Shown here one piece after another: positions 23,941-45,231 of a stretch of DNA of 64,000 bases; positions within the stretch are counted from its first letter, which is position 1, and each line of letters starts with the position of its first letter. The stretch covers positions 2,870 through 66,869 of the forward strand of contig JBMYSY010000019.1 of assembly GCA_049603795.1 (NCBI GenBank), read 5' to 3'. The notes under the pieces were generated by a model that searched no databases, was not told where the DNA came from, and saw nothing but the letters and a program-made list of their open reading frames with translations. The stretch is from Magnetovibrionaceae bacterium (lineage in GTDB: Bacteria > Pseudomonadota > Alphaproteobacteria > Rhodospirillales > JBMYSY01). The translations under genes and the position numbers were made by a program.

Positions 23941-23946
<6 letters not shown>
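23891..23946. repeat. Direct repeat copy B, abutting and overlapping the 3' end of tRNA-Ala
   Basis: GAGCGGATCGTCTCAGACAAGGGGCGAGCGGAGCGGGGCAATCGAAAGAATGGTGG. A third TGGTGGAGTCGA fragment sits at 23818-23829. Confidence 0.7.
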
Positions 23947-24016
<70 letters not shown>

Positions 24017-30614: not shown

Positions 30615-30899
30615 ATGACCAAGTCCGAACTCATTCAAAAAATTGCCGAATCTAATCCGCATCTTTATCAGCGCGATGTGGAAAGAATCGTGACGACGAT
30701 TTTTGACGAGATCACCAACACGCTGTCCCAGGGCGACCGGGTCGAACTGCGGGGCTTCGGTGCTTTCTCCGTCAAGGAACGCGGTGCTCGCGTGGGCCGC
30801 AACCCGCGCACCGGAGAGGCGGTGGATGTGGATGCGAAATACATCCCCTATTTCAAAACCGGCAAACAGCTGCGCGAAAAGCTGAACACGGACGGTTGA
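30615..30899 (+). CDS. ihfB: Integration host factor subunit beta
   Basis: [26 protein letters not shown]...[27 protein letters not shown]. Confidence 0.95.
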
Positions 30900-31512: not shown

Positions 31513-33030
31513 TCAGCGGGCCGTGACGGTGACGAGGGCGGCGTCATCGAGTGGGGGGGGCTTATCGGAGGTCATGCGCGCAACGGTCGCCTCGGCGGTT
31601 CCGCAGATGCGATAGGTCGTTGCCAGGGCGTCCACCTCTTCCGCCGTCTCCGCGAGACCGTCCGAGAAGATGAGCAACCGGTCGTCGGCCCGGAGATCGA
31701 TGGTGGCTTGCCGGAACGCCTCCGTCGTCGGAAGGCCGAGCAGTGGGCCGTCGGTGTCGATCCGCTGGGAGCTCTCACCTTTCAGGAGTAGCGGTGGCGG
31801 ATGGCCGGCGGAGGCAATGCTGAGGGGCCCGTTGTCCGCCAGGCCGAGGACCAACCCGCTGGCCAGGGTCTCAGAGAAAAGCGGGTCGCCCGACATGACG
31901 TCGGAGAGCGCGCCCAGCAGGTCGGCGGGGCCTGAGAGGCTGGCGTCCCGGGCAAGGCCGCTGAGGCAGCCGGAAAGGCCCTGGGCCAGGAAAGACGCGG
32001 TTTCGTCATGGCCCATGACGTCGATCAGGACGATGGCCTGCCAGCCCTTCAGAGCGAAATGACGCAGCAGATCGCCGCCGCCGATGCCGGCGGGCCGGAC
32101 GACGCCTTCGATCCCAAACCGGCCGATCTGTCCGGGCAGATGGGGTGCCATGGCCTCGTTAATTCGTCGATCGACGCGCATGCCATGGCTGCTGGTCAGT
32201 TGCCGTGACCGGTTGAGGACGCGGTCGAGCACGGCCAGCAGGCGGTCTTTGGTCACGGGTTTTTCCAGATAGTCATCGATCCCGAGGGGTGTCGCGGCGG
32301 CCCGGCTCTCGGCGTCCTGGCGCCCGGTGAGGAAGAGGAAGGGGAGGGTCGCGCCGTCTTCCCGCTCGGCCAGGGTCTTGCGCAGGCCAAAACCATCCAG
32401 CCCCGGCAGCGAAATGTCCGAGATGATGACGTCAGCAGTTCCGGGCGCTTTTCCGGGCGCTTTTCCGGGTTTGGCGGCCAGATAGCTCTCCGCGCTGTCG
32501 AAAACCTCGATCCGAAAACGCTCCCGGACAAAGAGCGAAACCAGGCGCTGAAAGGCCGGGTCGTCCTCGATCAGGTGGACCAGGGGGCGTCGGTCGGGCG
32601 GTGTCGGGCCTGTGAAGTGGAGCAGATGGTGGTTGAGGCCATCATCGGACAACAGCGCGCTTCGGTAAGACAAGCCCCCGGCGGACTGGCTGGCGAGAGC
32701 AAGTCCCATGCCCCCTTCCAACAGTTCGCCCCGGAGATCCCGGGTCCGGGCCACCTGCAAGGCGTTCTCGCTCTCTTCGAAGGCCCCGCCGTCGTCGGAG
32801 ATATCGAGAGCCCAGGTTTCGCCGGGCGTGAGCGTGACCACAAGGGCTGTCGCCTTTGGCTCTCCATGGCGGACGATGTTGGTGAAAATCTCGGAGGCGG
32901 CGAGCAGCAGACGACCGGCCTCCGTCTGGTCAAACCCGGCAGCGCTCAGGCGCGGGAGCAGACCGGCACGCAGGCGCGCCGGTCCCTCCAGGTTCGCATC
33001 GAATGTCTGCCGCCAAACCTCAGGCTGCAT
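31513..33030 (-). CDS. Fusion protein: RsbW-like anti-sigma Ser kinase (HATPase) domain, receiver domain and PP2C/SpoIIE phosphatase
   Basis: N-terminus is AASEIFTNIVRHG...LDISDDGGAF (HATPase_c_2-like). Middle is LIEDDPAF...DVIISDISLPGLDG...YLEKP (REC). C-terminus is GGDLL...LIDVMGHD...DDAALVTV (SpoIIE). Its start overlaps the glmM stop by 11 nt. Confidence 0.85.
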   Translation of the reverse strand: MQPEVWRQTFDANLEGPARLRAGLLPRLSAAGFDQTEAGRLLLAASEIFTNIVRHGEPKATALVVTLTPGETWALDISDDGGAFEESENALQVARTRDLRGELLEGGMGLALASQSAGGLSYRSALLSDDGLNHHLLHFTGPTPPDRRPLVHLIEDDPAFQRLVSLFVRERFRIEVFDSAESYLAAKPGKAPGKAPGTADVIISDISLPGLDGFGLRKTLAEREDGATLPFLFLTGRQDAESRAAATPLGIDDYLEKPVTKDRLLAVLDRVLNRSRQLTSSHGMRVDRRINEAMAPHLPGQIGRFGIEGVVRPAGIGGGDLLRHFALKGWQAIVLIDVMGHDETASFLAQGLSGCLSGLARDASLSGPADLLGALSDVMSGDPLFSETLASGLVLGLADNGPLSIASAGHPPPLLLKGESSQRIDTDGPLLGLPTTEAFRQATIDLRADDRLLIFSDGLAETAEEVDALATTYRICGTAEATVARMTSDKPPPLDDAALVTVTAR

Positions 33031-34387
33031 TCTCGAGTTCCTCTGCGATGCGCATGACGGCTTCGCGGATGGCAGTGGCGTCTTCGCCTTCGCCCAGGAT
33101 CCGGATCAGGGGCTCCGTACCCGAGGCACGCACAAGCAAGCGGCCTTTGTCTTCCAACTGCGCGGTCTCGCGGTCAATGGCGGACTTCACGGCTTGATCA
33201 TCCAGGATTGCCTTGTTCGCTGTTCGAACATTTTGCTGGCTTTGCGCGAAGGGTGTAAAGCGGGTGCAGATTTCACTCGCCGGGCGTTCGTCCACAACCA
33301 GGGCCGCCAGAACCTGCAACGCGGCCACAAGGCCGTCACCGGTCGTGGCCCCTTTCCCGATGATCACATGGCCGGAGGATTCTCCACCCAGCACGGCCCC
33401 GGTTTCGCGCATCATCCGGACGACATTGCGGTCCCCGACCGGCGCACGGTGCAGCACGATGTCCTGGTCCGACAGGTGCTTGTCGAGGGCCATGTTCGAC
33501 ATGACGCTGGCAACCGCACCGCCGCTGCTTAAGGTCCCGGCCTTTTTCATGCGGGCTGCCACCAGCGCGATGATCTGATCGCCGTCGATGACCTGGCCTT
33601 TCTCGTCACAGAGGATCAATCGGTCACCGTCGCCGTCGAAGGCGATGCCCAAGTCGGCTCCGGTGCGGATGACCTCCGCCCGCAGGGCCCGCGTATCGGT
33701 CGATCCGCAGTCCTGGTTGATGTTGAAGCCGTCCGGCTCGCAGCCGATGACGGAAATATCGGCACCCAGTTCGCTCAGGACCTGAGGGGCCACGCGATAG
33801 GTGGCACCATGGGCACAGTCGACGACCAGTCGCATGCCTTCGAGGGTCAGGTCTGTGGGAAAGCTGCGCTTGGCGGATTCGATGTAGCGCGCGACGGCAT
33901 CGTCCAGGCGTTTGGCACGGCCCAGTTCATCGGCCTCGACGCGAAGGGTCGTGAGATCGCCTTGGACCAGGGCTTCAATCTCGTCCTGTTCGGCATCCGA
34001 AATCTTGTAGCCGTCGGATCCGAACATCTTGATGCCGTTGTCGGTGTAGGGATTGTGCGAGGCCGTGATCATGATGCCGAAATCCGCCCTCAACGAGGTC
34101 GTCAGCATCGAGACCGCCGGGGTCGGCATGGGGCCCAGCAGAACCGGATCGACCCCACCGGAGACCAGACCCGCGGTCAGGGCGGATTCGATCATGTAGC
34201 CGGAAAGGCGGGTATCCTTGCCGATCACCACACGGTGACGAGTTTCGCCCTTGGCAGCCGGATTGCGCGGGGTGCGAGACCGGAGAACCTTGGCGATGGC
34301 TAGGCCCACTTTCAGGACCGTGCAGGGGGACATCGCGTCGGCGTTTGCCTTGGCGCGGATGCCGTCGGTGCCGAAGAGTTTCGTCAT
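33020..34387 (-). CDS. glmM: Phosphoglucosamine mutase
   Basis: MTKLFGTDGIRAKAN, the active-site TASHNP, and the GEQSGH-like GESSGH. Confidence 0.95.
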   Translation of the reverse strand: MTKLFGTDGIRAKANADAMSPCTVLKVGLAIAKVLRSRTPRNPAAKGETRHRVVIGKDTRLSGYMIESALTAGLVSGGVDPVLLGPMPTPAVSMLTTSLRADFGIMITASHNPYTDNGIKMFGSDGYKISDAEQDEIEALVQGDLTTLRVEADELGRAKRLDDAVARYIESAKRSFPTDLTLEGMRLVVDCAHGATYRVAPQVLSELGADISVIGCEPDGFNINQDCGSTDTRALRAEVIRTGADLGIAFDGDGDRLILCDEKGQVIDGDQIIALVAARMKKAGTLSSGGAVASVMSNMALDKHLSDQDIVLHRAPVGDRNVVRMMRETGAVLGGESSGHVIIGKGATTGDGLVAALQVLAALVVDERPASEICTRFTPFAQSQQNVRTANKAILDDQAVKSAIDRETAQLEDKGRLLVRASGTEPLIRILGEGEDATAIREAVMRIAEELENAA

Positions 34388-34518
34388 GCCGGAAAGTCCT
34401 CGTCGAAGATCATGTCGCCCTCGGCCCAGTTCCAATCGTCGAGGGAAAGATCATTGGCGAAGCCGTTGATCAGGGTTTCGGAGTTGACGTCTTCGATTTC
34501 GTTCCAGTTTTTGGCCAT
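34384..34518 (-). CDS. Small acidic protein (44 aa), translationally coupled to glmM
   Basis: AGGAGG lies 6 nt upstream of the ATG at 34518. The product is MAKNWNEIEDVNSETLINGFANDLSLDDWNWAEGDMIFDEDFPA. The stop overlaps the glmM ATG (ATGA). A sigma-54 promoter lies upstream. Confidence 0.5.
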   Translation of the reverse strand: MAKNWNEIEDVNSETLINGFANDLSLDDWNWAEGDMIFDEDFPA

Positions 34519-34555
34519 CGGGGCCTCCTGTCTCAAAAGGGTTTGAACGTTCAAG

Positions 34556-34572
34556 AGCAAGGGCGATGCCAA
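34556..34572 (-). promoter_or_regulatory. Sigma-54 promoter (P1): TTGGCATC-GCCC-TTGCT
   Basis: The minus strand reads CTTTGGCATCGCCCTTGCTCTTGAACGTTCAA. The -12 GC lies 39 nt upstream of ATG 34518. The promoter is divergent from the LuxO-like activator gene. A perfect 12-bp palindrome TTGAACGTTCAA (34543-34554) spans the predicted start. Confidence 0.65.
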
Positions 34573-34754
34573 AGGTCTAAGTTATTGAAAAATATATTTT
34601 GTTTTTCCAGCCGCCTGGTTTCTCCGGCTTGTTTTTTCGCATCCTGCGACGGCTCGTTTTCAAAATGCGGCGCAGCCCGGACCCCACCATCGGGAGAATT
34701 GCGGGGGTCAGGCCGAACCGCTACGGTTATCCCGAATCCAAAGGAGGTAGACCG

Positions 34755-36206
34755 ATGACGCCATCCGACCCGTTTCGCGTGCTGTTGATCGAAGACGATC
34801 TGTCCATGGCGCGGATCTGTCAGGGCTACCTGAAGGATACGGGCTACCGGGTCGATCATGCCGCCAACGGCAAGGATGCCTTGGAACTGATCGACAGCAA
34901 CCTGCCCCATGTGTTGCTGCTGGACCTGAAGCTGCCGGATATGGACGGCTTCGACATTCTGCGCCAGGTGAAGGAAAAGGGACTGCCGCTGGTCACCATC
35001 GTCGTCACCAGCCAGGCTTCCATGTCGACGGCGATCGAGGCGATGCAGCTGGGCGCTAAGGACTTTCTGGTAAAACCCTTCGCCAAAGAACGCTTGATCA
35101 CGACCCTGAAGAACGCCGAGGAACTGCAACATCTGGAACAGGTGGTGGAGACCTACCGTTCCGAGATTGATGTTCGACAGTACCACGGCTTCATCGGCTC
35201 CTCGCTGGCCATGCAGGCGGTTTACCGCATTGTCGGGGCTGCGGCGGGCAGCAAGGCTTCCGTCTTCATCACCGGCGAATCAGGCACAGGCAAAGAGGTC
35301 TGCGCGGAAGCCATTCACCGCCAGAGCGCGCGCGCCAAGAAGCCGTTCATCGCCATCAACTGCGGCGCCATTCCCCATGATCTGATGGAAAGTGAAATCT
35401 TCGGCCATGTGAAAGGGGCCTTCACCGGCGCGCACCAGGACCGCGAAGGGGCCGCCAAGCAGGCTGACGGCGGCACACTGTTTTTGGACGAAGTGGGCGA
35501 GATGGACATCTCGTTGCAGCCGAAACTGCTGCGGTTCCTGCAGACCGGGCGGTTCCAGAAGGTTGGCGGTGCGGGCGAGCAAGAGGTGGACGTGCGCATC
35601 GTCTGCGCCACAAATCGGGATCCTCTGGAGGAAATTCAGGCGGGCCGTTTTCGCGAAGACCTTTACTATCGCCTCCACGTCCTACCGATCCTGTTGCCGC
35701 CGCTCCGCGACCGGGAAGGGGATGTGGTGGAATTGGCGGAACACTTCCTCGGCGTCTATTCGAAGGAGGAGGGCAAGGCTTTCAAGTCCTTCTCGCCGGA
35801 GGCCCAGGCGATCCTGGCCGCCTACCCCTGGCCCGGCAATGTGCGCCAGATGCAGAACGTCATCCGCAACATCATCGTCCTGAACCAAGGGGATGTTGTG
35901 GAGGCCGACATGCTGCCGAGCCCGCTGGACAGTTTTTCGGCGGTAACGGCCATGGCGGCACTCCCACAGCCCCTGGCCCAGGCGGGAGCCGTCCCCGCCT
36001 CTCAGGGCGCACCTGCCGGAGCACCGGCACCGGTTGTCGATGATGGCGTGATTGTACCCCTGGCCCAGGTGGAACGGGAAACGATCGAGCGCGCCATCCG
36101 GCTTTCCGGCAACAACATCCCCCGCGCGGCCAAAAGCCTGGGGATCAGTCCGGCTACGATTTATCGCAAGAAGCAGGTCTGGGAAGTCCAGGGCGAAGAG
36201 CCCTGA
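34755..36206 (+). CDS. Sigma-54-dependent response regulator (bacterial enhancer-binding protein), LuxO-like
   Basis: AAGGAGG RBS. REC domain (VLLLDLKLPDMDG). AAA+ domain with GESGTGKEVCAEAIH, the GAFTGA sigma-54 contact loop and RFREDLYYRL. C-terminal Fis-type HTH. The overall string pattern is very close to Vibrio LuxO. Confidence 0.9.
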   Translation: MTPSDPFRVLLIEDDLSMARICQGYLKDTGYRVDHAANGKDALELIDSNLPHVLLLDLKLPDMDGFDILRQVKEKGLPLVTIVVTSQASMSTAIEAMQLGAKDFLVKPFAKERLITTLKNAEELQHLEQVVETYRSEIDVRQYHGFIGSSLAMQAVYRIVGAAAGSKASVFITGESGTGKEVCAEAIHRQSARAKKPFIAINCGAIPHDLMESEIFGHVKGAFTGAHQDREGAAKQADGGTLFLDEVGEMDISLQPKLLRFLQTGRFQKVGGAGEQEVDVRIVCATNRDPLEEIQAGRFREDLYYRLHVLPILLPPLRDREGDVVELAEHFLGVYSKEEGKAFKSFSPEAQAILAAYPWPGNVRQMQNVIRNIIVLNQGDVVEADMLPSPLDSFSAVTAMAALPQPLAQAGAVPASQGAPAGAPAPVVDDGVIVPLAQVERETIERAIRLSGNNIPRAAKSLGISPATIYRKKQVWEVQGEEP

Positions 36207-37712
36207 TCAGGTCCAAAGCCCCGGGATATCGATCTCCAACAACTGGCCCAAGGACCGGTCCGCAAGATCGGGCAGACCTTCGGCCAACATGCGGGCTGTC
36301 TCGGCATCGTCAAGGCGGTAAGAGGTCTCAACCGCACGCGCGGCCTGCAGCAACTGGGTGAGGCCATGGGCCCCGGAGCTGCTGCCCAGGGTGTGAACCT
36401 CCCGCTCGATCACGCTGTCATCACCGGCGGACAGGGCACGCTCGACCTCTTCGATCCGCTTACGGGTCTCCTCCACATAGAGCGCGACCAGTTCGGGCAA
36501 CATGTCGGGGTCTGTGTCGTCGCCCAGTTTTTTCAGGATCGCGACATCGACCAGGCCCGGTTCCGAAGCGTCTTGGGCTTCGTCATCGTCATCTGGCCGA
36601 TTGTCCGTCGGCTCGACATCCGGGGACGCAGCCGCCTGGAGGTCGCGGCCCAATAGGTTGTTCAGGGTGGCCAACAGAAAGTCGCGGTCGATGGGTTTGG
36701 GGACAAAAGCATCCATGCCCGCGGCCAGCAGCCTTTCCCGGTCGCCTTTCATCGCGAGCGCTGTTATCGCAACGATGGGGATAGCAGCCTTTTCCGGCGA
36801 AAGCTTTCGGATAGCACGGGTCGCCTGAATGCCGTCCATCTCGGGCATCTGGATGTCCATCAGCACAAGATCAAAGTCTCGGGCCTGGACGGCTTCGACA
36901 CCTTCGCGACCGTTGACCACACTTTCCGACAGGCAGCCCCACCTCGCGATAATGCCTTCGATAACGATCCGGTTGATGGCGTTGTCTTCGACGATCAGAA
37001 CCCGCGCGGGCGGCAAGGGGTCGTGTTCTGCCGAAGGTTCCGGGATCAAATCGGGTTGCGGGGGGCTCAACCGGATCAGGGGGACAAAAAAACGGGTGCG
37101 TCGTTCGTTCCGATCGAAGGATGCTTCCTCCAGGCCGCCGCCCATCATGGCCAAAAGGCGCTCGGCATTTTCCCTGGCAAACAGGAAGGGGAGACCGGGA
37201 TCCGCCTCGGCTGCTTCCTGTTTGAGGGTCAGGGTGAAGGTTATCCGCGCCTCTGAATCATCAACGTCGACGGAGAGGCTGAGCCTCGCGTTTTCTGTAC
37301 CGTGGGAAAGGTTGCGTGCGAGCGACAGCAACACCTGCCCCAATCGGCCCTGGTCCGCTTCGAACCAGACCGAGGCACTGTCGGCTGGCGGGCGAATATC
37401 CAGGCGGCAGGCTTTTTGTTTCAGGAAACGGCTCAAAAGGGTATCGACCGCTTCCAGCAGGTTCGACAGCTGCACGGGCTGGGGCTCCAGCGTCAATTCG
37501 CCGGTCATCAGACAGTGTAGGTCCTGTACTTCGTGGGTCAGGGCCGTCAAAAGCCCGGTGGCCTCCCGAGCACCGTCCAGAAGATCCTTTTGGGTCGGAT
37601 CGGAAACCATATCGGCGCAGGCGTTGATCCGACGCCGGAGCTCCGAGATCAGGGGGCTGAGCTCTGCGTTCATGGCCGCCAGATAGGCCAGATTGTCCGT
37701 TCCCTGTGTCAT
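36207..37712 (-). CDS. Soluble degenerate-HK / receiver / Hpt phosphorelay protein
   Basis: The DHp-like segment reads MNAELSPL where SHELRTPL is expected, so there is no phospho-His. The HATPase-like region lacks the DxGxG box. The REC domain is intact (DLVLMDIQMPEMDG) and so is the C-terminal Hpt (HTLGSSSGAHGL). No TM segment is present. Confidence 0.8.
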   Translation of the reverse strand: MTQGTDNLAYLAAMNAELSPLISELRRRINACADMVSDPTQKDLLDGAREATGLLTALTHEVQDLHCLMTGELTLEPQPVQLSNLLEAVDTLLSRFLKQKACRLDIRPPADSASVWFEADQGRLGQVLLSLARNLSHGTENARLSLSVDVDDSEARITFTLTLKQEAAEADPGLPFLFARENAERLLAMMGGGLEEASFDRNERRTRFFVPLIRLSPPQPDLIPEPSAEHDPLPPARVLIVEDNAINRIVIEGIIARWGCLSESVVNGREGVEAVQARDFDLVLMDIQMPEMDGIQATRAIRKLSPEKAAIPIVAITALAMKGDRERLLAAGMDAFVPKPIDRDFLLATLNNLLGRDLQAAASPDVEPTDNRPDDDDEAQDASEPGLVDVAILKKLGDDTDPDMLPELVALYVEETRKRIEEVERALSAGDDSVIEREVHTLGSSSGAHGLTQLLQAARAVETSYRLDDAETARMLAEGLPDLADRSLGQLLEIDIPGLWT

Positions 37713-37736
37713 CCGCTTATCGATCAGTCTTCCGTT

Positions 37737-38174
37737 TTAAGAGGCCAGGCCCAATCCTGCGATTGCCCGCTGCAGGCAACCCATCTGACCGGTTCTGGCA
37801 TCCAGTTCCAACGACAGTTTGCGCCCCAGATCGGGCAAGTCCAGAGGTTTGACGAAATAGGCGAAGCAACCAAGGCCGAGGGCGCGCTCGATATCCCCCA
37901 TGCAGGAGCGACCGGTCATCATGGCGACCGGTGTCTTTCGCAAATTGCGATCCTTTCGGATAAGCGAAAGAACATGCGGGCCGGAGAGGTCGGGCATCAT
38001 CCAATCCAACAGGATGGCAGAGGGAGCCTCGGCCCTGGCCTTGATCAGGCCCTCATTCCCGTCCTTTGCCGTAACCACGCTGTACTGGAAGCGTTTCGAG
38101 AGATGCAAACTGAGCTGCATGCGCAGACTGGCGTCGTCGTCGACCACCAGGATGGATTTTCGCATTTTGAACAT
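37737..38174 (-). CDS. Single-domain response regulator (CheY-like)
   Basis: ILVVDDD, ILLDWMMPDLSG and YFVKP receiver motifs. AAGGAG RBS. Confidence 0.85.
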   Translation of the reverse strand: MFKMRKSILVVDDDASLRMQLSLHLSKRFQYSVVTAKDGNEGLIKARAEAPSAILLDWMMPDLSGPHVLSLIRKDRNLRKTPVAMMTGRSCMGDIERALGLGCFAYFVKPLDLPDLGRKLSLELDARTGQMGCLQRAIAGLGLAS

Positions 38175-38209
38175 GAAAAGGCTCCTTTGCGGTTATTTGA
38201 CCGGGGAGG

Positions 38210-38225
38210 AGCAACAGGCATGCCA
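38210..38225 (-). promoter_or_regulatory. Sigma-54 promoter (P2): TGGCATG-CCTG-TTGCT
   Basis: The minus strand reads CCCTGGCATGCCTGTTGCTCC. The -12 GC lies 37 nt upstream of ATG 38174, the first gene of the REC/phosphorelay operon. Confidence 0.65.
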
Positions 38226-38371
38226 GGGGCGGATCACCCTCGGCTAAAGAAACACCGATCCCAGAGGCGGCTGAGCCGTCACCAAGGTTTCGCTTGAAGG
38301 CCAAGCGGGCTGTTGCCATCGTCTCTGACAGAAACGGCCTGCAACGCCGTCATGGGACAGGAGGATGAGTA

Positions 38372-39349
38372 GTGGAACGGGTTAGGCTTGGACGGACCGG
38401 TATACCGGTCTCTAAACTCTGTTTCGGGACAATGACATTCGGCGGGGCGGCGGACGCCGAAACCTCGGCAGAGATCTATGGTGCCTGCCGGGATGCCGGC
38501 GTGACCTTTTTCGATTGTGCCGACATGTACAACGGCGGCGAAGCGGAGCGAATTCTGGGTCGCTTGATCGCTCACGAGCGGGACGAGATCGTCCTCACCT
38601 CCAAATGCGTCATGCCGGTAACCAAAGACGTCGATCCGGCCAACCGCGGTGCCAACCGCCGCCATATCCTGAACGCCGTCGAAGCCTCCTTGAAACGGCT
38701 CGGCACCGACCGGTTGGACGTCTTGTTCATTCACCAGTGGGACCCGGAAACGCCGATGGAGCAAACCCTGCGCGCCGTTGATGATCTGGTGCGAAGCGGC
38801 AAGGTGGTCTATGCCGGTGTTTCCAACTGGGCGGCCTGGGCGATGGCCAAGGCCTTGGGGATTCAGGCGCGGGAAGGTTGGCAAGCCTTCGACATCATTC
38901 AGCCCATGTACAGCCTGTTGAAACGCCAGGTGGAGGTGGAGATTCTGCCTTTCGCGGCCTCGGAGGATTTAGCCGTGATCTGCTACAGTCCCGGTGCAGG
39001 GGGGCTGCTCAGTGGCAAGTACAGCGGCATCGATGCCGAGAAGGGCACTCGACTGGGTGATTCCGCGCATTATCGCCGCCGCTATTCCGTCGATTGGTAT
39101 TGGGACACCATTCAGAACTTCGGTGCCCTGGCCAAAGAATGGGGCCACCATCCCATGAGCCTCGCCATCGCCTGGGCCGGTGCACAGGAGGCCATAACCT
39201 GCCCGATCATCGGTGCCCGGAACATGGATCAGCTGAAGACGGGCCTGGCCGCAGCCGAGATCGCCTTGAGCCCTGACCAACGCGCCGAGATCACGGCCCT
39301 TTCCCAGACCCCGCCGCCCGCAACCGACCGCCTTGACGATGTGATCTAG
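38372..39349 (+). CDS. Aldo/keto reductase
   Basis: GTG start. LGRTGIPVSKLCFGTMTFG and FDCADMYNGGEAERILG are typical AKR N-terminal motifs. Confidence 0.9.
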   Translation: MERVRLGRTGIPVSKLCFGTMTFGGAADAETSAEIYGACRDAGVTFFDCADMYNGGEAERILGRLIAHERDEIVLTSKCVMPVTKDVDPANRGANRRHILNAVEASLKRLGTDRLDVLFIHQWDPETPMEQTLRAVDDLVRSGKVVYAGVSNWAAWAMAKALGIQAREGWQAFDIIQPMYSLLKRQVEVEILPFAASEDLAVICYSPGAGGLLSGKYSGIDAEKGTRLGDSAHYRRRYSVDWYWDTIQNFGALAKEWGHHPMSLAIAWAGAQEAITCPIIGARNMDQLKTGLAAAEIALSPDQRAEITALSQTPPPATDRLDDVI

Positions 39350-39371
39350 GATCCTTTTCGGGAACAATAAA

Positions 39372-40154
39372 ATGCTTAAACAGGTACCTGCCGCGCTGCT
39401 GCTTGTCGTCGGTTTTTTTGTGATGGCGGGTCCGGCATCGGCAGAGACCCTGACGATCTTTACGCACAATACCAAGGGACAGGCGGAGGTGCGCGACGGG
39501 CAGCTTCGCGGTCTCCCGCAAGCGGGTCTGCGCGCCGTCTATCTCGAGATCGTACGCGAAATCCTTGCCGATCTCGGCACCCCGGACATCCGCATCCGGG
39601 ATGTCCCTTTCAAGCGCGGCTATGAGTTTGCTGCCAATCGCGAAAACACCCTGCTCTTCAACATTGCGCGGACGGAAGAACGCGAGGCCCTGTTCAAATG
39701 GATCGGGCCCACCTGGCTGGTGCAGGATTTCATCTATGCTGCGGCGTCAAATACCGACCTGCCCGCCCGGATGGAAGAGGCGCTGGATCAGAAGATCTGT
39801 GTGGTCCGGGGGAATATCCATGACAGCTATTTTTCAAAACTGGCACCGCGCACCGTCAGCCGCGCGAACACCTACGAGACCTGCTTCAAGCGACTGCACG
39901 AAGGCCAGGCGGACTTGACGGTCATCGCCTCGGTGGACCTTGTCACAACCCTCGCCAAGGCCAACCTCTCGCCCGATCAGTTTGTGAATACCGGCATCAA
40001 GGTGAGCGAACACGGCGGCTACATAGCGGCTTCCCTCGACTTGGCGGACGACACCGTTGCCAGGTGGCAGGCCGCCCTCGACGCCATGAAAGCCGACGGG
40101 CGGCATGCGGAAATCGTCAGGACCTTCGCCCATCCGAGTATGAACTTGGAGTGA
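39372..40154 (+). CDS. Periplasmic substrate-binding-domain protein (SBP family 3-like)
   Basis: Signal peptide MLKQVPAALLLVVGFFVMAGPASA. The fold pattern resembles amino-acid-type binding proteins, and no transporter genes are adjacent. Confidence 0.7.
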   Translation: MLKQVPAALLLVVGFFVMAGPASAETLTIFTHNTKGQAEVRDGQLRGLPQAGLRAVYLEIVREILADLGTPDIRIRDVPFKRGYEFAANRENTLLFNIARTEEREALFKWIGPTWLVQDFIYAAASNTDLPARMEEALDQKICVVRGNIHDSYFSKLAPRTVSRANTYETCFKRLHEGQADLTVIASVDLVTTLAKANLSPDQFVNTGIKVSEHGGYIAASLDLADDTVARWQAALDAMKADGRHAEIVRTFAHPSMNLE

Positions 40155-40258
40155 AGCGCCTGATCCCTCATCTTTGCTGAGCAATCCCAATTGCAAAACG
40201 ATTACAGATGACTTACTTTAATCTTTCCGAAGTTCGGAATAATTAATGATGAGGCTGA

Positions 40259-40933
40259 ATGATGCCACTTGATAACGCGAAGGATATCGCGATAAGCCAG
40301 CCGATTTTGATCTCGGAAGCGGCAGCGGCGACTGGCCTCACTCCGCAAAAAATCAATCGACTAATCGATGACGAAATCCTGCCGCGGGCTGTCTCTGTTA
40401 AGGTCAAGAACCGGCGCGCGCTTCGAGTGTACGCCCTGCCGATGGTCAAATTCGGGGCCTCTGACGGGGTCAAGCTGAGCAAGCCAACCCGCCTAAAAGC
40501 AATGAATCTGATCGGTACCTATACCAAAGAGAACTGGCACAGCTTGCGCGATGAACCAGGCCTTGCCGCATCTTTGAAGTTTGAATCTGGCTGCGTCGTC
40601 GTCGCTCTTGGCCCAAAGATGACTGAAGCAATGGAGGGCCTGAACAGGTGGATTGAGGCGAAGCAGCGTGTCATTCAGGACCCGGACCTCCGAGGAGGGA
40701 TTCCCGTCATCCGCGGAACCAGAATTGGCGTTTACGAAGTCGCCCAGGCCCTGGATGCTGATGGCGAAGCTCTCGTTTTGGAGGATTTCCCAGCCTTGTC
40801 CCAAGAGGATCTGATAGCGGCGAAGCTGTTTGCCATCGCCCATCCGCAGAGGGGCCGCCCCCCGGCGCGCCCGGCGCGGCGGCAGCTGATATCGGAAACC
40901 GAAGTATACTTACCCCGCGCCGGAAGACTCTGA
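40259..40933 (+). CDS. DUF433-domain protein with an N-terminal HTH-like extension (putative antitoxin)
   Basis: C-terminal DLRGGIPVIRGTRIGVYEVAQAL...FPALSQEDLIAAKLFA is the DUF433 signature. The N-terminal ~130 aa contain ISEAAAATGLTPQKINRLIDDEIL. Confidence 0.75.
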   Translation: MMPLDNAKDIAISQPILISEAAAATGLTPQKINRLIDDEILPRAVSVKVKNRRALRVYALPMVKFGASDGVKLSKPTRLKAMNLIGTYTKENWHSLRDEPGLAASLKFESGCVVVALGPKMTEAMEGLNRWIEAKQRVIQDPDLRGGIPVIRGTRIGVYEVAQALDADGEALVLEDFPALSQEDLIAAKLFAIAHPQRGRPPARPARRQLISETEVYLPRAGRL

Positions 40934-40937
40934 ACTC

Positions 40938-41375
40938 TTGAGCACGAAGTTCCTGATAGACGAGTGCCTGCCTGTCTCTCTTTCGGCACTGGCGGTTGAT
41001 GCGGGCTATCCGGAAAGTGCTCATGTCGCCCATCGCGGCATGTGCGGCTGGCCCGACCACCGCTTAATGAGCCGCATCATCGAAGAGGATTGGACCCTGG
41101 TAACCCGAAACTCCAATGACTTCCGCCCGGTGAAAGGTAGCTCCAGCAAATCCCCCTGTTATGTCGGGCAACCCTTGCACGCCGGCCTCATTTGCTTGAA
41201 TCCACCTCCAGGTTCAGGGCGGACCGTCCTGCAAGATTATTTTGCGGCTGCCCTCAACCATATGGGGCCAGGGGGCAACCTGACGAACCAAATACTCGAG
41301 ATTGATCCAGCCGTTTCGGCAAACGAAAGGGTTATGATTCGGCTTTATGATTTTCCTCGAGATGAAGACACATAA
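40938..41375 (+). CDS. DUF5615 / Mut7-C-like PIN-domain protein (putative toxin)
   Basis: TTG start 4 nt after the upstream stop. KFLIDECLP...WPDHRLMSRIIEEDWTLVTRNSNDF matches the DUF5615 pattern. The region is low-GC. Confidence 0.7.
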   Translation: MSTKFLIDECLPVSLSALAVDAGYPESAHVAHRGMCGWPDHRLMSRIIEEDWTLVTRNSNDFRPVKGSSSKSPCYVGQPLHAGLICLNPPPGSGRTVLQDYFAAALNHMGPGGNLTNQILEIDPAVSANERVMIRLYDFPRDEDT

Positions 41376-41486
41376 ATCTGAAGAAATTCGCAGGCAGATA
41401 GGAGACGGCCTAAGCCTCCTTGATCCGACCCCGACCCATCGCAATATGTTGTCGATGGTTCAAATTTCACCGGGGCTTCCTTGCTG

Positions 41487-42029
41487 ATGAAAATCCTCGC
41501 CTTCGCCGCCAGCAATTCGAAACAGTCGATCAACAAGGCCCTTGTCCGCCATGCGGCCGATGTCTTCACCTCTGAAATCCTCTCCGATGCCACAGTGGAC
41601 CAGTTGGACCTGAACGATTTCGAGATGCCGCTCTACAGCATTGACCGCGAAAACGAAGGCGGCATTCCGGACCTGGCAAAAGCCTTCTATGGGGCCATTG
41701 GGGAAGCGGATGCCCTGATCATTTCGTTCGCCGAACACAATGGGACCTATACGGCAGCCTTCAAGAACCTGTTTGACTGGATGTCGCGGATCGACCGGAA
41801 CCTCTATCAGGGTAAACCGCTTTTGGCGCTTGCCACCTCCCCCGGCAAGGGCGGGGCCGGAAATGTCCTGAACGTGGCCACGAGCGCCGCCCCGCATTTC
41901 GGCACCGAAGTTGTCGCAAGCCTGTCGGTCCCATCGTTCTATGAGGTCTTTGATACCGAAAGCGGGACGCTCACTGATCCTGCACTGGCGGCAGCCCTTC
42001 GGCAGGCACTCTCCGCTCTCTGCAAGTAG
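41487..42029 (+). CDS. NADPH-dependent FMN reductase family protein
   Basis: MKILAFAASNSKQSINKAL...EHNGTYTAAFKN is typical of this family. Confidence 0.85.
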   Translation: MKILAFAASNSKQSINKALVRHAADVFTSEILSDATVDQLDLNDFEMPLYSIDRENEGGIPDLAKAFYGAIGEADALIISFAEHNGTYTAAFKNLFDWMSRIDRNLYQGKPLLALATSPGKGGAGNVLNVATSAAPHFGTEVVASLSVPSFYEVFDTESGTLTDPALAAALRQALSALCK

Positions 42030-42063
42030 GTGATCGGCCATTGCCGGATCGCGGGTCTTAGGC

Positions 42064-43545
42064 TCAGGTCCCGCAGAAGGTCTGCTTCACCTCTTCTTCC
42101 GGGTTCGGTGCGAGGGCGTACTTCGCCCCTTGCCGCTGATCGTCAAAGGGCTTTTCCAGAACCGCCAAGAGGTCATATAGGGGAGCATAGTCCGCATGAT
42201 CCTCGGCGGCCCGGATCACCTCTTCGACGCGATGGTTCCGTGCAATGACGGCGGGATTGGCCGCTTTTAGCCGGTCCTCGGCCTGATCGATGGTTTCGTT
42301 GTCTTCTGTGATCCTGATCCGCCAACGCGCAACCCATTCCGAAACTGTCTTCGGGTCTGCAAACTGCTGTGCAAAAGGGCTGACCCCACTGGTCTCTGCG
42401 ATGGCTTGGGGGAGGGATCGGAAGGTATTCGTAAAATCGGCCTCGCCGGCGGCCATGAGCTCCAGCAGTTCAAGGCCGAGGCCGAGCGCATCATCCGCGC
42501 CGTCCCTCAATCCCAGTTTGGCCGCAAAAGCCCGGCGCAGGTTGTTCGAGAAGGTCTCGGGCAAGGCGTCCACAACCTCCTGAGCCATGGCGACCGCCGT
42601 CTTCAGGTCTTCGTCGATGAAGGGCAGCAGACAGTAGGCCAATTGCCCCAGATTCCACTGCAGAATCCCGGGCTGGTTCATGAAGGCATAGCGCCCCCCC
42701 TGGTCGATGGAGCTGAACACCTTGTCCGGGTGGTAGGTGTCCAGGAAGGCGCAGGGGCCGTAGTCGATCGTCTGGCCGCTGATCGAGGTGTTGTCGGTGT
42801 TCATGACCCCGTGAATGAAACCGACGGAAATCCATTTTGCCACCAGGGCGGCCTGGCGCTCCATCACCCTGCGCAACAACCCAAGGGCCGGCAGCGGCTC
42901 GGCTTTCAGGTCCGGGTCGTGACGGTCAATGGCGAAGTCGATCAGGAGCTTAAGGGCCTCCAGGTCTTCCCGCGCGGCGAAGTACTCGAAAGTCCCGATG
43001 CGCAGATGGCTTTTGGCCACGCGGGTCAAGACGGCACCCGGTTTCAGGTCCTCCCGATAGACCGCTTCGCCGGTCGTCACGGCGGCCAGGGCCAGGGTCG
43101 TCGGGATGCCCAGGGCCTTCATGTGAGCGCTCAGGATGAATTCCCGCAACACAGGCCCGAGCGCCGCCCGGCCATCCCCGCCACGGGAATAGGGCGTGCG
43201 GCCTGCACCCTTCAGATGGATGTCCTGGCGGATACCATCCTTATCGATGATCTCGCCCAACAGAATGGCCCGTCCATCCCCCAGTTGCGGGACGAAATGC
43301 CCGAACTGATGACCGGCATAGGCCATGGCGAGCGGCTCAGCCCCCGGGGGCAGACAGTTGCCGGCAAAAATTTCGGCGGCCTCCGGCGTGCCGAGCGCCT
43401 GCGGTTCGAGCCCGAGCGAGAGGGCCAAGGCGTCATTGACGATTACCGGCCCTGGTGCCTTTACCGCTGTTGGTTCGAGGCGCGCATAAAACCGCTCCGG
43501 CAGTCGGGCGTAACTGTTGTCAAAACCGAAATTGATCTGTTCCAT
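42064..43545 (-). CDS. selO: Protein adenylyltransferase SelO (YdiU)
   Basis: FDNSYARLPERFY, AYAGHQFG, GDGRA and HGVMNTDN motifs. Confidence 0.9.
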   Translation of the reverse strand: MEQINFGFDNSYARLPERFYARLEPTAVKAPGPVIVNDALALSLGLEPQALGTPEAAEIFAGNCLPPGAEPLAMAYAGHQFGHFVPQLGDGRAILLGEIIDKDGIRQDIHLKGAGRTPYSRGGDGRAALGPVLREFILSAHMKALGIPTTLALAAVTTGEAVYREDLKPGAVLTRVAKSHLRIGTFEYFAAREDLEALKLLIDFAIDRHDPDLKAEPLPALGLLRRVMERQAALVAKWISVGFIHGVMNTDNTSISGQTIDYGPCAFLDTYHPDKVFSSIDQGGRYAFMNQPGILQWNLGQLAYCLLPFIDEDLKTAVAMAQEVVDALPETFSNNLRRAFAAKLGLRDGADDALGLGLELLELMAAGEADFTNTFRSLPQAIAETSGVSPFAQQFADPKTVSEWVARWRIRITEDNETIDQAEDRLKAANPAVIARNHRVEEVIRAAEDHADYAPLYDLLAVLEKPFDDQRQGAKYALAPNPEEEVKQTFCGT

Positions 43546-43628
43546 CCAAGGAATGTAGGCATGCCGAGGTGAGAAGTCAGCCGCGATTTGGGTCCTCTCT
43601 GGCCCTCAATCAATCCCCACCAGGGCCA

Positions 43629-43841
43629 TCAATGGCGGCTTTCCAAGGTCCCGCCTGTAAGGCAATCCGAGGCTTTATTGTGATCGGAAGCCTGTGCCCT
43701 GGCGTTTTCGACAAATCCTTCCCAAGACGACGATAGGCGTTCTGCCAAGGCTTCCGGTGCGGGCTGAAAGGCCATCCATCCGAACAGGAGAGCCAGAAGT
43801 GCAAAGGGGAGCGCCTGGGGCGGTTTAAAAAAGGTGATCAT
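43629..43841 (-). CDS. Possible small membrane/exported protein (70 aa)
   Basis: Hydrophobic N-terminus ALPFALLALLFGWMAF. It lies between the XRE gene and selO on the same strand. There is no further support. Confidence 0.35.
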   Translation of the reverse strand: MITFFKPPQALPFALLALLFGWMAFQPAPEALAERLSSSWEGFVENARAQASDHNKASDCLTGGTLESRH

Positions 43842-43850
43842 TTTTCCGGC

Positions 43851-44441: not shown

Positions 44442-44663
44442 TTTCGAGCCTCTCCAAAAGCGTTTCGATTTCTCAACCGTGCGTACTTTTTCACAGCTTC
44501 CCCATGGACGCAAATGGATGAACTCGGCAGGCCGGAAAGCCCACCTGAAAACACCTAAAGCATCTCTTGAAGGGCCAGGATGCAGGTTTTTAAAATTACA
44601 CCCAATCACCTGACAAAAAATAAAATAATATCTAGTGTCGCACCGATAGGAGGCTGAGGAATT

Positions 44664-45122: not shown

Positions 45123-45231
45123 TCCCGTAGGTATCATTGCCCCAGGTATTATCGCCCAAGGAATTCCAAACAGGCTTTCTGCTGGCCGAAACCCTTGATC
45201 ATCGCGGATGCTGGTCTAAAACTCACCGCAC

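Follow-up and report, generated by a model that had tools for sequence, protein, structure and literature searches.

The locus studied here is an alphaproteobacterial version of the "symbiosis polysaccharide" (syp) system of Vibrio fischeri, with its genes rearranged. It lies in a window of 64,000 nt (the whole stretch of DNA analysed) from the genome of an uncultured Magnetovibrionaceae bacterium (MAG), and this window very probably holds a syp/scv-type exopolysaccharide system in split form, with a sigma-54 enhancer-binding response regulator (bEBP), tandem upstream activating sites (UAS) and five sigma-54 promoters (Table 1). The circuit is real, but its kind has already been described: the matching known system is syp/scv of V. 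fischeri and V. parahaemolyticus. The original prediction took the architecture for an undescribed one, which is wrong, and held that LuxO-type activators drive only sRNAs, which overlooks SypG, a LuxO paralogue. In V. fischeri, SypG switches on four syp promoters of the sigma-54 type, and SypE both adds and removes the phosphate at S56 of SypA (PMC3843225, PMC4517449; the role of S56 is taken from PMC4517449). Related syp-like loci have already been reported from 28 genera, two of which, Elstera and Terasakiella, belong to the Rhodospirillales (PMC8941931). The analysis computed homology, the conservation of domains and key residues, promoter and UAS statistics, and how far promoters and gene linkage are conserved among relatives.

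Table 1. Genes and predicted regulatory sites of the window.
Feature	Position	Strand	Evidence or remark
Metallophosphoesterase, predicted regulon member	5091-6071	-	Pfam Metallophos
P5, predicted sigma-54 promoter CTGGCATGTCGGTTGCTC of the metallophosphoesterase gene	6127-6144	-	17.3 bits, intergenic
Candidate tandem UAS common to divergent P4/P5: TCGCGTTTTGCGG (6196-6208), TCGCAACTTGCAG (6215-6227)	6196-6227		19 bp apart
P4, predicted sigma-54 promoter TTGGCATGGCACTTGCGG	6320-6337	+	14.8 bits, intergenic
55-aa ORF headed by P4	6380-6547	+	SD GGAGGAG
PAS-PP2C phosphatase	16387-18615	+	Pfam PAS-SpoIIE
Hybrid kinase HisKA-HATPase-REC, without Hpt	18715-20517	+	Pfam
SypE-like protein: RsbW-type serine kinase, REC, PP2C phosphatase	31513-33030	-	Pfam HATPase_c_2, REC, SpoIIE
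glmM (phosphoglucosamine mutase)	33020-34387	-	TIGR01455, 553 bits (cut-off 447)
Putative 44-aa acidic ORF, first in P1 operon	34384-34518	-	
P1, predicted sigma-54 promoter TTGGCATCGCCCTTGCTC of small ORF-glmM-sypE operon	34555-34572	-	15.4 bits, intergenic
Candidate tandem UAS for P1: TCGCATCCTGCGA (34637-34649), TTTCAAAATGCGG (34658-34670)	34637-34670		21 bp apart
SypG/LuxO-family sigma-54 enhancer-binding response regulator (bEBP)	34755-36206	+	Pfam REC, Sigma54_activat, HTH_8; AAA+, Fis-type HTH
SypF-like relay protein, cytoplasmic: kinase-dead DHp/CA remnant, REC, Hpt	36207-37712	-	Pfam finds REC and Hpt only
Single-domain CheY-like receiver	37737-38174	-	Pfam REC
Perfect palindrome TCGCAAATTGCGA inside the REC gene	37938-37950		Best UAS-matrix score in window, 20.1 bits
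P2, predicted sigma-54 promoter CTGGCATGCCTGTTGCTC of REC and SypF-like operon	38209-38226	-	17.3 bits, intergenic
SypD-like ATPase	46850-47557	-	Pfam AAA_31
SypC-like Wza/SLBB exporter	47570-49900	-	Pfam Poly_export, SLBB
Putative 140-aa lipoprotein at SypB position	49729-50151	-	
SypA-like STAS protein	50148-50450	-	Pfam STAS
P3, predicted sigma-54 promoter CTGGCACGCCGGCTGCAC of sypA-lipoprotein-sypC-sypD operon	50495-50512	-	15.6 bits, intergenic
P3 upstream region: exact IHF-consensus match (50528-50540); candidate tandem UAS TCGAAAAATGCGA (50587-50599), CCGCAATTTGCGA (50607-50619)	50528-50619		UAS 20 bp apart
Polysaccharide biosynthesis genes	50652-64000	-	Pfam; transcribed from 64000 downward
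Candidate weak sigma-54 promoter before glmS CTGGCCCATCTCCTGCAC	61853-61870	-	11.5 bits
Exact IHF-consensus match adjoining the candidate glmS promoter	61887-61899		

The syp-like parts of the window are SypA, SypC, SypD, SypE, SypF-like and SypG-like proteins and SypL-R-type biosynthesis genes, and unlike in V. fischeri the locus is split. When compared directly by BLASTP with the syp locus of A. fischeri (L010), the window gave matches for SypA (37% identity), SypC (53% over 697 aa), SypD (33% over 236 aa), SypE (31% over 455 aa, both proteins being of 505 aa), SypF (28%, residues 244-756) and SypG (49.5%). The STAS, Wza-like, BY-kinase-like, RsbW-like-kinase/REC/PP2C and degenerate-kinase/REC/Hpt proteins that had been called from the sequence were all recovered by Pfam; the SypE-like protein is not, as previously considered, the only PP2C candidate, the PAS-SpoIIE phosphatase being another. 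No SypB homologue is present, and the 140-aa lipoprotein at its position has no similarity to the OmpA-like SypB.

The biosynthesis block is the counterpart of SypL-R in syp, with glmS in addition. From position 64000 it encodes an unassigned ORF, Wzy_C, GlmS, a hexapeptide acetyltransferase, GT1, unknown proteins of 783 and 194 aa, Wzz, GT4, GT2 and Bac_transf. Many SypE-containing loci, as well as the P0061/P0179 contig, carry homologues with 33-68% identity in this same order. The order GT1-Wzz-GT4-GT2-Bac_transf-SypA-x-SypC-SypD likewise recurs in many SypE-containing loci and in the contig of P0061, a bEBP with 62% identity to that of the window. In the P0061 contig, a 124-aa ORF takes the place of the lipoprotein, and the block continues into sypE-glmM-small ORF on the opposite strand, divergent from the bEBP gene.

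Regarding the regulatory sites, tandem 13-bp palindromes of the type TCGCA-N3-TGCGA, spaced 19-21 bp apart, precede four of the five promoters at a distance of 60-120 bp; at P1 they lie between the promoter and the divergent bEBP gene, 73 and 94 bp from the -24 GG. The window has no more than three such pairs (0.22 expected), all of which precede these promoters, and none of 200 shuffles reached three. The motif was first spotted by eye in the same regions, a circularity which is lessened, not fully removed, by a later unbiased ranking of all 1024 palindromes of the 5-N3-5 form, where TCGCA-N3-TGCGA came first (p = 4.4e-6; about 4.5e-3 after Bonferroni correction). The geometry matches that of the V. 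fischeri syp enhancers, measured in L010 (a pair of sites of 13-15 bp, spaced by about 20 bp and lying 60-120 bp from -24), and each half-site of the motif departs by one or two bases from the published motifs of SypG (TTCTCANNNTGMDWN) and LuxO (TTGCAWWWTGCAA) (PMC10162802). It could be argued that these palindromes are terminator stems or sites of another regulator and that the bEBP binds elsewhere. The distal P3 palindrome does have a competing explanation, since it forms the apex of a strong, terminator-like hairpin of 15 bp with a T tract behind it (dG -25.9 kcal/mol, z -4); single sites with at most one mismatch are not enriched window-wide (5 vs 3.6), and even the binding of SypG to its enhancers has never been demonstrated biochemically (PMC10162802). 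However, a terminator is not expected between divergent genes, where the P1 and P4/P5 pairs are found, and the fixed spacing, the confinement of the pairs to these promoters, the first rank of the motif, its closeness to the genetically defined SypG and LuxO sites and the equivalents in related loci make this explanation unlikely. Most sypA homologues have an upstream sigma-54 site with T[TC][GT]CA-N3-TG[CA][AG]A palindromes, and the same combination precedes glmM-sypE (L086, L087) and a metallophosphoesterase operon (L088).

P2 shares the highest promoter score in the window, with 37 nt from the -12 C to the ATG, and the UAS scan of the window found no pair upstream of it. Its only strong UAS site is the perfect palindrome about 270 bp downstream, inside the REC gene, which was not part of the training set of the UAS matrix.

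Concerning the P3 operon (47 nt from the -12 C to the ATG), a site of at least 13 bits occurs within 350 bp upstream of the sypA homologue in 16 of the 24 SypE-containing loci scanned. S49 of the STAS protein, in a DSSG motif, is aligned with SypA S56. In the SypE-like protein, N51 and D205 are aligned with SypE N52 and D192, and the PP2C aspartates are invariant in the family alignment. The SypE-like and STAS proteins could also form a classical partner switch that frees an alternative sigma factor, in the style of RsbV/RsbW, rather than gating the polysaccharide directly. The RsbW-type N-terminal domain (HATPase_c_2) and the match of the STAS protein to anti-sigma-factor-antagonist models (TIGR00377) are in line with this, and even V. 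fischeri offers no known SypA target (PMC4517449). Nevertheless, the TIGR00377 score stays below its cut-off (34.9 vs 53.45), neither the window nor the related loci examined contain a linked sigma factor gene, and the STAS gene opens the export operon in nearly all loci, so such a switch is improbable.

In the P1 operon (39 nt from the -12 C to the ATG), the glmM start overlaps the stop of the small ORF (ATGA), which has no counterpart in L086 and L087 and a 32-aa ORF at its place in the P0061 contig. The glmM product has 55-58% identity to those adjacent to sypE in L086 and L087, and equivalent promoters precede glmM-sypE in L087 (17.2 bits) and L086. P5 is 58 nt (-12 C) from the ATG at 6071. 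The homologues of its metallophosphoesterase (51-59% identity) are apparently in the contigs with bEBP homologues; the one in L088 is preceded by a 19.1-bit sigma-54 site and is the first gene of a flippase/acetyltransferase operon adjacent to the bEBP gene.

As had been anticipated, the bEBP is the only one in the window and carries a GAFTGA loop (residues 221-226). A protein from a Magnetovibrionaceae MAG matches it with 100% identity. Its likeness to LuxO was also confirmed, LuxO being both the best NCBIfam model (600 bits, followed by NtrC with 421) and the best solved-structure match (5EP0). Sequence alone does not place it any closer to SypG than to LuxO, and its assignment as a syp regulator depends on genomic context and shared sites. 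It might then be a true LuxO orthologue of a quorum-sensing relay, targeting an sRNA such as the P4 transcript, with the other promoters served by activators encoded elsewhere. Many relatives with 57-64% identity are labelled LuxO, some fused to an Hpt domain, P4 heads nothing but a 55-aa ORF without a Pfam match, and P2 lacks the upstream pair. Against this, the score misses the 800-bit equivalog cut-off for LuxO, the window gave no match to Qrr or any other Rfam family, P1, P3 and P4/P5 have the same type of tandem palindrome, and the nearest relatives whose context is known (P0061, P0063 and a partial gene in L086; 62-63% identity) adjoin glmM-sypE and sypC/sypD. A LuxO orthologue of this kind is thus quite unlikely, and a SypG-like regulator is preferred.

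The four promoter sites originally proposed are all present, and a fifth, P5, had been overlooked. P1, P2 and P3 fit TGGCAY-N5-YTGCW, while the P4 core (6321-6336, plus strand; TGGCATGGCACTTGCG) ends in G, not W, and therefore fits only a looser pattern. The strict pattern has four matches in the whole window (34556-34571, 38210-38225, 50496-50511 and 6128-6143, all on the minus strand), against 0.24 expected. The original prediction had called for a window-wide scan with a position weight matrix (PWM). The matrix used was an approximation to the published consensus, and it recovered PsypA and PsypI when checked on Aliivibrio fischeri. Among the six top-scoring sites (14.8 bits or more), five are intergenic, with intergenic DNA making up 12.6% of the window (binomial p ~2e-4). 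Each of the five has the same orientation as the gene behind it, as had been described for P1 to P4, with 37-58 nt between the -12 C and an SD-preceded ATG. That these matches arose by chance in GC-rich DNA and the operons use ordinary promoters is highly improbable, for although about two chance hits had been conceded for the 8-nt core, the one other, equally good site (51520-51537, minus strand) is intragenic and at 9 bits the observed sites equal the expected ones (22 vs 22.6), at 15 bits or more there are five against 0.44, none of 100 dinucleotide-preserving shuffles reached four strict matches, the location, orientation and distance of the top sites are right, and sigma-54 sites also occur at orthologous positions in other genomes. 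No rpoN gene lies in the window. From the site statistics, the common tandem element and the conservation of promoters together with this element in related loci, it seems that one LuxO/SypG-type bEBP serves the STAS-export, kinase/REC/PP2C and REC/Hpt units, as originally suggested.

With respect to the relay, the SypF-like protein has Ala in place of the H-box His and lacks the G1 and G2 boxes; its REC Asp and Hpt His (HTLGSS) are conserved. To complement a sypF deletion, the Hpt domain of SypF is sufficient by itself (PMC12369376). The CheY-like receiver has homologues with 34-42% identity in the SypE-containing loci L018 and L022. The PAS-PP2C phosphatase and the hybrid kinase, the top BLAST match of SypF in the window, are inferred to be candidate relay inputs; the PWM scan found no sigma-54 site near them. 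Besides the split, the local peculiarities of the locus are the kinase-dead SypF-like protein, the lack of SypB, the metallophosphoesterase added to the predicted regulon and the glmM-sypE operon divergent from the bEBP gene, which is kept in relatives.

In all its biochemical steps, the following mechanism is modelled on V. fischeri. One or more hybrid sensor kinases, possibly the one encoded here, would pass phosphoryl groups to the Hpt of the SypF-like protein and from there to the receivers of the SypG-like bEBP and the SypE-like protein, and the CheY-like receiver may be a phosphate sink. The phosphorylated bEBP would bind the tandem sites and activate the sigma-54 holoenzyme at the five promoters: P3 for export, P1 for amino-sugar precursor and the SypA kinase/phosphatase, P2 for feedback on the relay, P5 for the metallophosphoesterase and P4 for the 55-aa ORF. 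After transcription, the state of the SypE-like receiver would set the serine kinase or the PP2C phosphatase mode, and the resulting phosphorylation of S49 in the SypA-like protein could gate polysaccharide production.

A scan of the GTDB species genomes with the family alignment of the kinase/REC/PP2C protein returned the syp locus of Aliivibrio fischeri (locus L010), and the closest named relatives of this protein are Vibrionaceae proteins. Photobacterium and a metagenomic contig carry genes for STAS, OmpA, Wza/SLBB, ATPase, three-domain, Hpt hybrid kinase and glycosyltransferase proteins in this order; in Photobacterium the locus continues with flippase and Wzy_C genes, and a sigma-54 enhancer-binding protein (bEBP) is encoded on the metagenomic contig too. 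This order, from the STAS gene to the glycosyltransferases, is that of the syp (symbiosis polysaccharide) locus. The original prediction took the architecture for one not previously described; the wiring is that published for V. fischeri syp, where phospho-SypG activates the four sigma-54 syp promoters and SypE phosphorylates and dephosphorylates the STAS protein SypA, below transcription (PMC3843225, PMC4517449). For the window, we infer all mechanistic steps of the circuit by homology. The gene map was curated with Pfam, and every domain call of the prediction was borne out by Pfam and NCBIfam.

Features of the syp-type locus and its surroundings (sigma-54 sites: the six best matrix sites, at least 14.8 bits; UAS, upstream enhancer site)
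Feature	Position	Strand	Description
Metallophosphoesterase gene	5091-6071	-	behind P5
55-aa ORF	6380-6547		behind P4
PilJ-like/PAS/SpoIIE (PP2C) phosphatase, then HisKA-HATPase-REC hybrid kinase without Hpt	16387-20517 (phosphatase 16387-18615)	+	
SypE-like protein	31513-33030	-	HATPase_c_2 (RsbW-type) + REC + SpoIIE/PP2C; 31% identity to SypE, 455 aa; both 505 aa
glmM	33020-34387	-	above equivalog cut-off
44-aa ORF	34384-34518		behind P1
bEBP	34755-36206	+	REC + sigma-54 AAA+ + Fis-type HTH (HTH_8); GAFTGA at residues 221-226
SypF-like protein	36207-37712	-	REC + Hpt after about 230 residues without Pfam match; 28% identity to SypF, 522 aa
Lone REC	37737-38174	-	Pfam
Intervening genes	38372-46627		aldo-keto reductase, solute-binding-like protein, DUF433, FMN reductase, SelO, HTH protein, DUF498, Mem_trans transporter
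SypD-like MinD/BY-kinase-like ATPase	46850-47557	-	33% identity to SypD, 236 aa (BLASTP)
SypC-like Poly_export/multi-SLBB exporter	47570-49900	-	53% identity to SypC, 697 aa (BLASTP)
SypA-like STAS protein	50148-50450	-	Pfam STAS; 37% identity to SypA over 81 aa; first gene of export operon
Polysaccharide genes, upstream of STAS gene	50652-64000	-	ascending: Bac_transf, GT2, GT4, Wzz, two unknowns, GT1, hexapeptide acetyltransferase, GlmS, Wzy_C
Sigma-54 site P2	38209-38226	-	before REC and sypF-like genes
Sigma-54 site P5	6127-6144	-	17.3 bits
Sigma-54 site	51520-51537	-	15.9 bits
Sigma-54 site P3	50495-50512	-	before export operon
Sigma-54 site P1	34555-34572	-	before small ORF-glmM-sypE
Sigma-54 site P4	6320-6337	+	before 55-aa ORF
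UAS pair of P4/P5	starts 6196/6215		
UAS pair of P1	starts 34637/34658		
UAS pair of P3	starts 50587/50607		

The sypC- and sypD-like genes are contiguous with the STAS gene. In the alignment, SypA S56, whose role is documented (PMC4517449), lies opposite S49 of the window protein, in a DSSG motif. BLASTP of A. fischeri SypB, the OmpA-like protein encoded between sypA and sypC in syp, gave no match in the window, and the slot of SypB is taken by a 140-aa putative lipoprotein without Pfam family. Regarding the SypE-like protein, N52 and D192 of SypE align with its N51 and D205, and the PP2C aspartates are invariant in 18 family members; this predicted kinase/phosphatase thus appears to keep its catalytic and phospho-acceptor residues. 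It had been described as the only RsbW-like kinase/PP2C candidate of the window, which fails for the PP2C part, given that 16387-18615 also encodes a PAS-SpoIIE phosphatase. The RsbV/RsbW/RsbU and SpoIIAA/AB/E systems of Bacillus likewise combine a STAS protein, phosphorylatable at a serine, with RsbW-type kinase and PP2C phosphatase domains, whereas in the window a single protein joins kinase, phosphatase and receiver, and in the Vibrio model the output is the production of polysaccharide. There is no sigma factor gene among the annotated window genes or in the related loci examined.

In the alignment of the SypF-like protein with SypF residues 244-756, alanine takes the place of the H-box histidine, both G boxes (G1 and G2) have been lost and the N-terminal sensor is absent, while the receiver aspartate and the Hpt histidine (HTLGSS) are retained, so that its earlier description as a degenerate HK/REC/Hpt protein was correct. 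In V. fischeri, a sypF deletion is complemented by the Hpt domain of SypF alone (PMC12369376), which makes a kinase-dead relay plausible. The hybrid kinase encoded downstream of the 16387-18615 phosphatase is a candidate phosphodonor of this Hpt relay; the matrix scan found no sigma-54 site near 16387-20517.

SypL-R-type genes (Wzy_C, acetyltransferase, glycosyltransferases, Wzz and Bac_transf) are present according to Pfam. Their homologues, compared with related loci, since A. fischeri SypL-R lie outside the fetched locus, share 33-68% identity and the gene order is kept. The 783-aa and 194-aa proteins of this cluster (55165-58131, -) have no Pfam or NCBIfam family and no homologue in the fetched SypE-containing loci. 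Between regulators and export operon lie about 8.5 kb of unrelated genes, which look like an insertion or rearrangement because both parts adjoin in the closest syntenic contig (P0061). Elsewhere, the window carries cas1 (741-1811), cas2 (1768-2241) and a CRISPR array (2316-3800) of about 22 units with a period of about 66 and the repeat CTGTAGCACAGGCTGTTTTGGAGAGCAGCTACAGC. Translated throughout, the array gives a spurious ORF in which CSTGCFGEQLQ recurs. The only RNA gene from Rfam and ARAGORN is tRNA-Ala (GGC) at 23941-24016 (-).

The bEBP is the only one in the window, as originally claimed. It matches a protein annotated in a Magnetovibrionaceae MAG at 100% identity, and a Logan assembly contig contains this stretch as well. 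It shares 49.5% identity with A. fischeri SypG over 495 aa (BLASTP) and 45-57% with the bEBPs of other SypE-containing loci. In NCBIfam it scores 600.1 bits against the LuxO model (NF041946), not reaching the equivalog cut-off of 800, and 421 against NtrC, and its best solved-structure match is LuxO (5EP0). Judged by sequence, it is a member of the LuxO/SypG clade, about as close to LuxO as to SypG, and it is named here as the syp regulator because of its conserved context and the shared sites, not because of sequence alone. Some relatives of about 610 aa (P0103, P0107, P0114 and others; about 60% identity) have a C-terminal Hpt fused to a LuxO/SypG-type activator.

A LuxO-LuxU-Qrr circuit, as in Vibrionaceae, has in common with the window these closest NCBIfam and PDB matches, a regulator presumably fed by an Hpt, and the 5-N3-5 geometry of the enhancers, TTGCA-N3-TGCAA versus TCGCA-N3-TGCGA. 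On the other hand, the window bEBP falls below the equivalog cut-off, its predicted targets are protein-coding operons, and its Hpt is part of the SypF-like protein, whereas LuxU is free-standing. Moreover, neither Qrr nor another sRNA family was found in the window with Rfam at the gathering threshold, nor over 5900-6700 around P4/P5 at E up to 5, and a Qrr-like sRNA behind P4 was rejected. A PEP-CTERM/exosortase EPS regulon (PrsK-PrsR), which likewise places a sigma-54 response regulator over an EPS locus and was considered for matches to TIGR03027 and TIGR02915, was discarded: the export protein (169.6 bits, cut-off 180) and the bEBP (377 bits against the PrsR model TIGR02915, cut-off 502.6) both stay below the cut-offs, and the window showed neither exosortase nor PEP-CTERM genes.

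We now turn to the promoters that the bEBP is predicted to serve. The strict -24/-12 pattern TGGCAY-N5-YTGCW has four matches in the window versus 0.24 expected, and none of 100 shuffles reaches four. Three of them are P1-P3, as predicted; P4 (6321-6336, +) exists as a site with a looser core, its last base being G, and does not fit the strict pattern. The fourth match (6128-6143, -), overlooked in the original prediction, is P5. An approximate 18-nt matrix, based on the published consensus, recovered the known sypA and sypI promoters of the A. fischeri syp locus at 19.0 and 15.6 bits, and found five window sites of at least 15 bits versus 0.44 expected from shuffles. Intergenic DNA makes up 12.6% of the window, yet it holds 5/6 of the best sites (binomial p about 2e-4). 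All five intergenic sites are oriented toward the adjoining gene, with the -12 C 37-58 nt ahead of an ATG preceded by a Shine-Dalgarno sequence. As to the objection, raised beforehand, that equally good sites might be just as dense within genes, the matrix scan does not bear it out: it gave one genic versus five intergenic sites, a density difference of about 35-fold.

The genic site at 51520-51537 lies within the GT2 gene, 199 nt ahead of Bac_transf, with no UAS nearby. Two weaker sites are found at 55783-55800 (-; 12.9 bits, GA at -12), before the 194-aa and Wzz genes, and at 61853-61870 (-; 11.5 bits), before glmS, with an IHF match and a weak UAS-like site. These three sites of the biosynthesis cluster could be internal promoters, unproven, like those of V. 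fischeri sypI/M/P, or chance matches. The IHF consensus WATCAANNNNTTR has only two exact matches in the window (50528-50540 and 61887-61899), both directly upstream of sigma-54-like sites, one at P3 and the other at the weak glmS candidate. The window also has a gene of the HU/IHF family, which follows rpsA at 30615-30899.

Concerning P5, it shares the UAS at 6196-6227 with P4, and homologues of its metallophosphoesterase (51-59% identity) are found on contigs that apparently match those with bEBP homologues. The metallophosphoesterase gene borders the syp-type cluster on the P0179 contig, which also carries P0061. In locus L088 it is preceded by a sigma-54 site (19.1 bits), a perfect palindrome (TCTCAAAATGAGA) and an ORF of 51 aa, and is the first gene of a flippase/acetyltransferase operon next to the bEBP gene. 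P5 is supported because this linkage to syp-type clusters and bEBP genes recurs. Small ORFs of 51 aa (L088, 4430-4760), 44 aa and 55 aa stand directly behind sigma-54 promoters; two of the three precede the first enzyme gene of an operon, and the 51- and 44-aa products are strongly acidic. Inspection of the translations revealed no apparent similarity among them, and the coding status of the 44-aa ORF is uncertain because it is not conserved in loci L086 or L087.

Upstream of P1, P3 and the divergent P4/P5 there are pairs of 13-bp near-palindromes of the TCGCA-N3-TGCGA type, 19-21 bp apart, with centres 60-120 bp from the -24 GG. They are the only tandem pairs in the window (three versus 0.22 expected; 0/200 shuffles reach three). 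Since the motif was first spotted by eye in these same regions, all 1024 palindromes of 5-N3-5 form were tested, and TCGCA-N3-TGCGA ranked first in enrichment over the 585 bp lying upstream of the promoters (5/27 window-wide matches; p = 4.4e-6, about 4.5e-3 corrected). Single sites with at most one mismatch show no window-wide excess (5 versus 3.6), so the significance is limited to the tandem-pair and location-restricted tests. In A. fischeri, two syp-enhancer copies spaced about 20 bp lie 68-97 bp upstream of PsypA and PsypI, as measured in L010. The motif published for SypG is TTCTCANNNTGMDWN and that for LuxO TTGCAWWWTGCAA (PMC10162802), and the window half-site is one or two bases off each of them. 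Several sigma-54 promoters with tandem enhancers are thus found in silico, as in syp: five strong sites, and tandem pairs at three intergenic regions.

The search for a UAS pair upstream of P2 found none. The top enhancer-matrix score of the window belongs to the perfect palindrome TCGCAAATTGCGA (37938-37950), within the REC gene about 270 bp downstream of P2 and not upstream of any promoter. Furthermore, the distal P3 palindrome forms the tip of a 15-bp hairpin with a T tract behind it (50597-50629, -; dG -25.9 kcal/mol, z -4), a structure that resembles a terminator for the Bac_transf operon ahead of it; therefore, one sequence may act as terminator and enhancer alike.

A sypA homologue lies on the fetched strand in 24 of the SypE-containing loci. 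In 16 of these 24, the 350 bp upstream of it include a sigma-54 site scoring at least 13 bits (chance about 0.007 per stretch, from shuffles), and most of these loci have T[TC][GT]CA-N3-TG[CA][AG]A palindromes farther upstream. The order GT1-Wzz-GT4-GT2-Bac_transf-SypA-x-SypC-SypD is that of the window and the common one outside V. fischeri. In the nearest bEBP relatives (62-63% identity), the bEBP gene likewise diverges from (small ORF)-glmM-sypE, so this unit is conserved. On the P0061 contig it directly adjoins sypA-D and the biosynthesis genes; L087 has a glmM-sypE-STAS operon, and in L086 the glmM-sypE unit is flanked by sypD/sypC and a partial bEBP gene. Both loci have a sigma-54 site before glmM (ATGGCACGTTCCTTGCTC in L087, TTGGCCCCGCATTTGCTC in L086) and palindromes upstream of it (TCGCATTTTGAGA in L087; TCTCAAAATGCGA and, 22 bp on, TCTCAAAACGAAT in L086). 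Sigma-54 sites also precede REC/kinase genes in the loci L018, L009 and L088, which makes P2 credible despite its absent UAS pair.

The window resembles V. fischeri syp in its LuxO/SypG-clade bEBP, several sigma-54 promoters with two tandem palindromic enhancers each about 70-100 bp upstream, the SypA phospho-serine, a SypE RsbW-REC-PP2C protein of equal length, the export proteins SypC and SypD, a putative SypF-type relay with an Hpt, genes for glycosyltransferases, Wzz, Wzy and acetyltransferase, and regulators themselves under (here predicted) sigma-54 control. Unlike V. fischeri, the host is an alphaproteobacterium, the locus lies in three or four places (5-6.5, 31.5-38.2 and 46.8-64 kb), the genes are arranged in permuted order (L...R before A-D), and SypE is encoded with glmM in its own operon. 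Moreover, the SypF-like protein lacks sensor, transmembrane part, catalytic histidine and G-boxes, there is an extra CheY-like REC, the OmpA-like SypB is missing, glmS, glmM and the metallophosphoesterase gene are included, and the enhancer half-site is TCGCA versus TTCTCA. Syp-like (scv) loci under a sigma-54 regulator have been reported in 148 species of 28 genera, including the Rhodospirillales Elstera and Terasakiella, and Magnetovibrionaceae is not among the taxa reported (PMC8941931); Aquabacter is another genus for which a syp locus is mentioned (PMC11059613). Since such loci are catalogued in 28 genera, that of the window is of an already known kind. A Terasakiella bEBP (P0149) is 58% identical to that of the window. 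The scv locus of V. parahaemolyticus has no SypE, SypF and SypM orthologues (PMC8941931), whereas the window has SypE-like, SypF-like and hexapeptide-acetyltransferase genes.

The split locus, the promoter for each regulatory unit, the glmM-sypE operon, the kinase-dead SypF-like protein and the absence of SypB are local features, to which glmS in the cluster and, as predicted regulon members, the metallophosphoesterase and the 55-aa ORF can be added. A non-exhaustive search of the syp/scv literature found no discussion of them. Taken jointly, they may describe a distinct alphaproteobacterial Syp variant, a reading that we put slightly below an even chance. In such a variant, SypF could now be a kinase-less REC-Hpt hub fed by orphan kinases alone, and a sigma-54 promoter for each regulatory unit could give nested positive feedback. 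The activator specificity could have moved to TCGCA-N3-TGCGA, between the LuxO and SypG sites, and the regulon could have widened to glmM (amino-sugar precursor; perhaps also glmS), the metallophosphoesterase and the 55-aa product.

The main value of these results is corrective, as a seemingly novel sigma-54/partner-switching/polysaccharide circuit turns out to be the Syp biofilm system, already well studied, in a marine alphaproteobacterium not yet in culture, and the comparative information added by the window is modest. The half-site series TTGCA, TCGCA and TCTCA across loci could help explain the separation of LuxO and SypG targets, and the intermediate TCGCA-N3-TGCGA sites, if true, could show how LuxO/SypG paralogues stay insulated. 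Besides, glmM and the metallophosphoesterase recur as accessory members within one clade. The catalytic half of SypF would be dispensable in nature, in parallel with V. fischeri genetics, and the Syp logic, in which a SypG-type activator uses tandem enhancers, SypE targets SypA and an Hpt serves as relay, would be kept far beyond Vibrionaceae.
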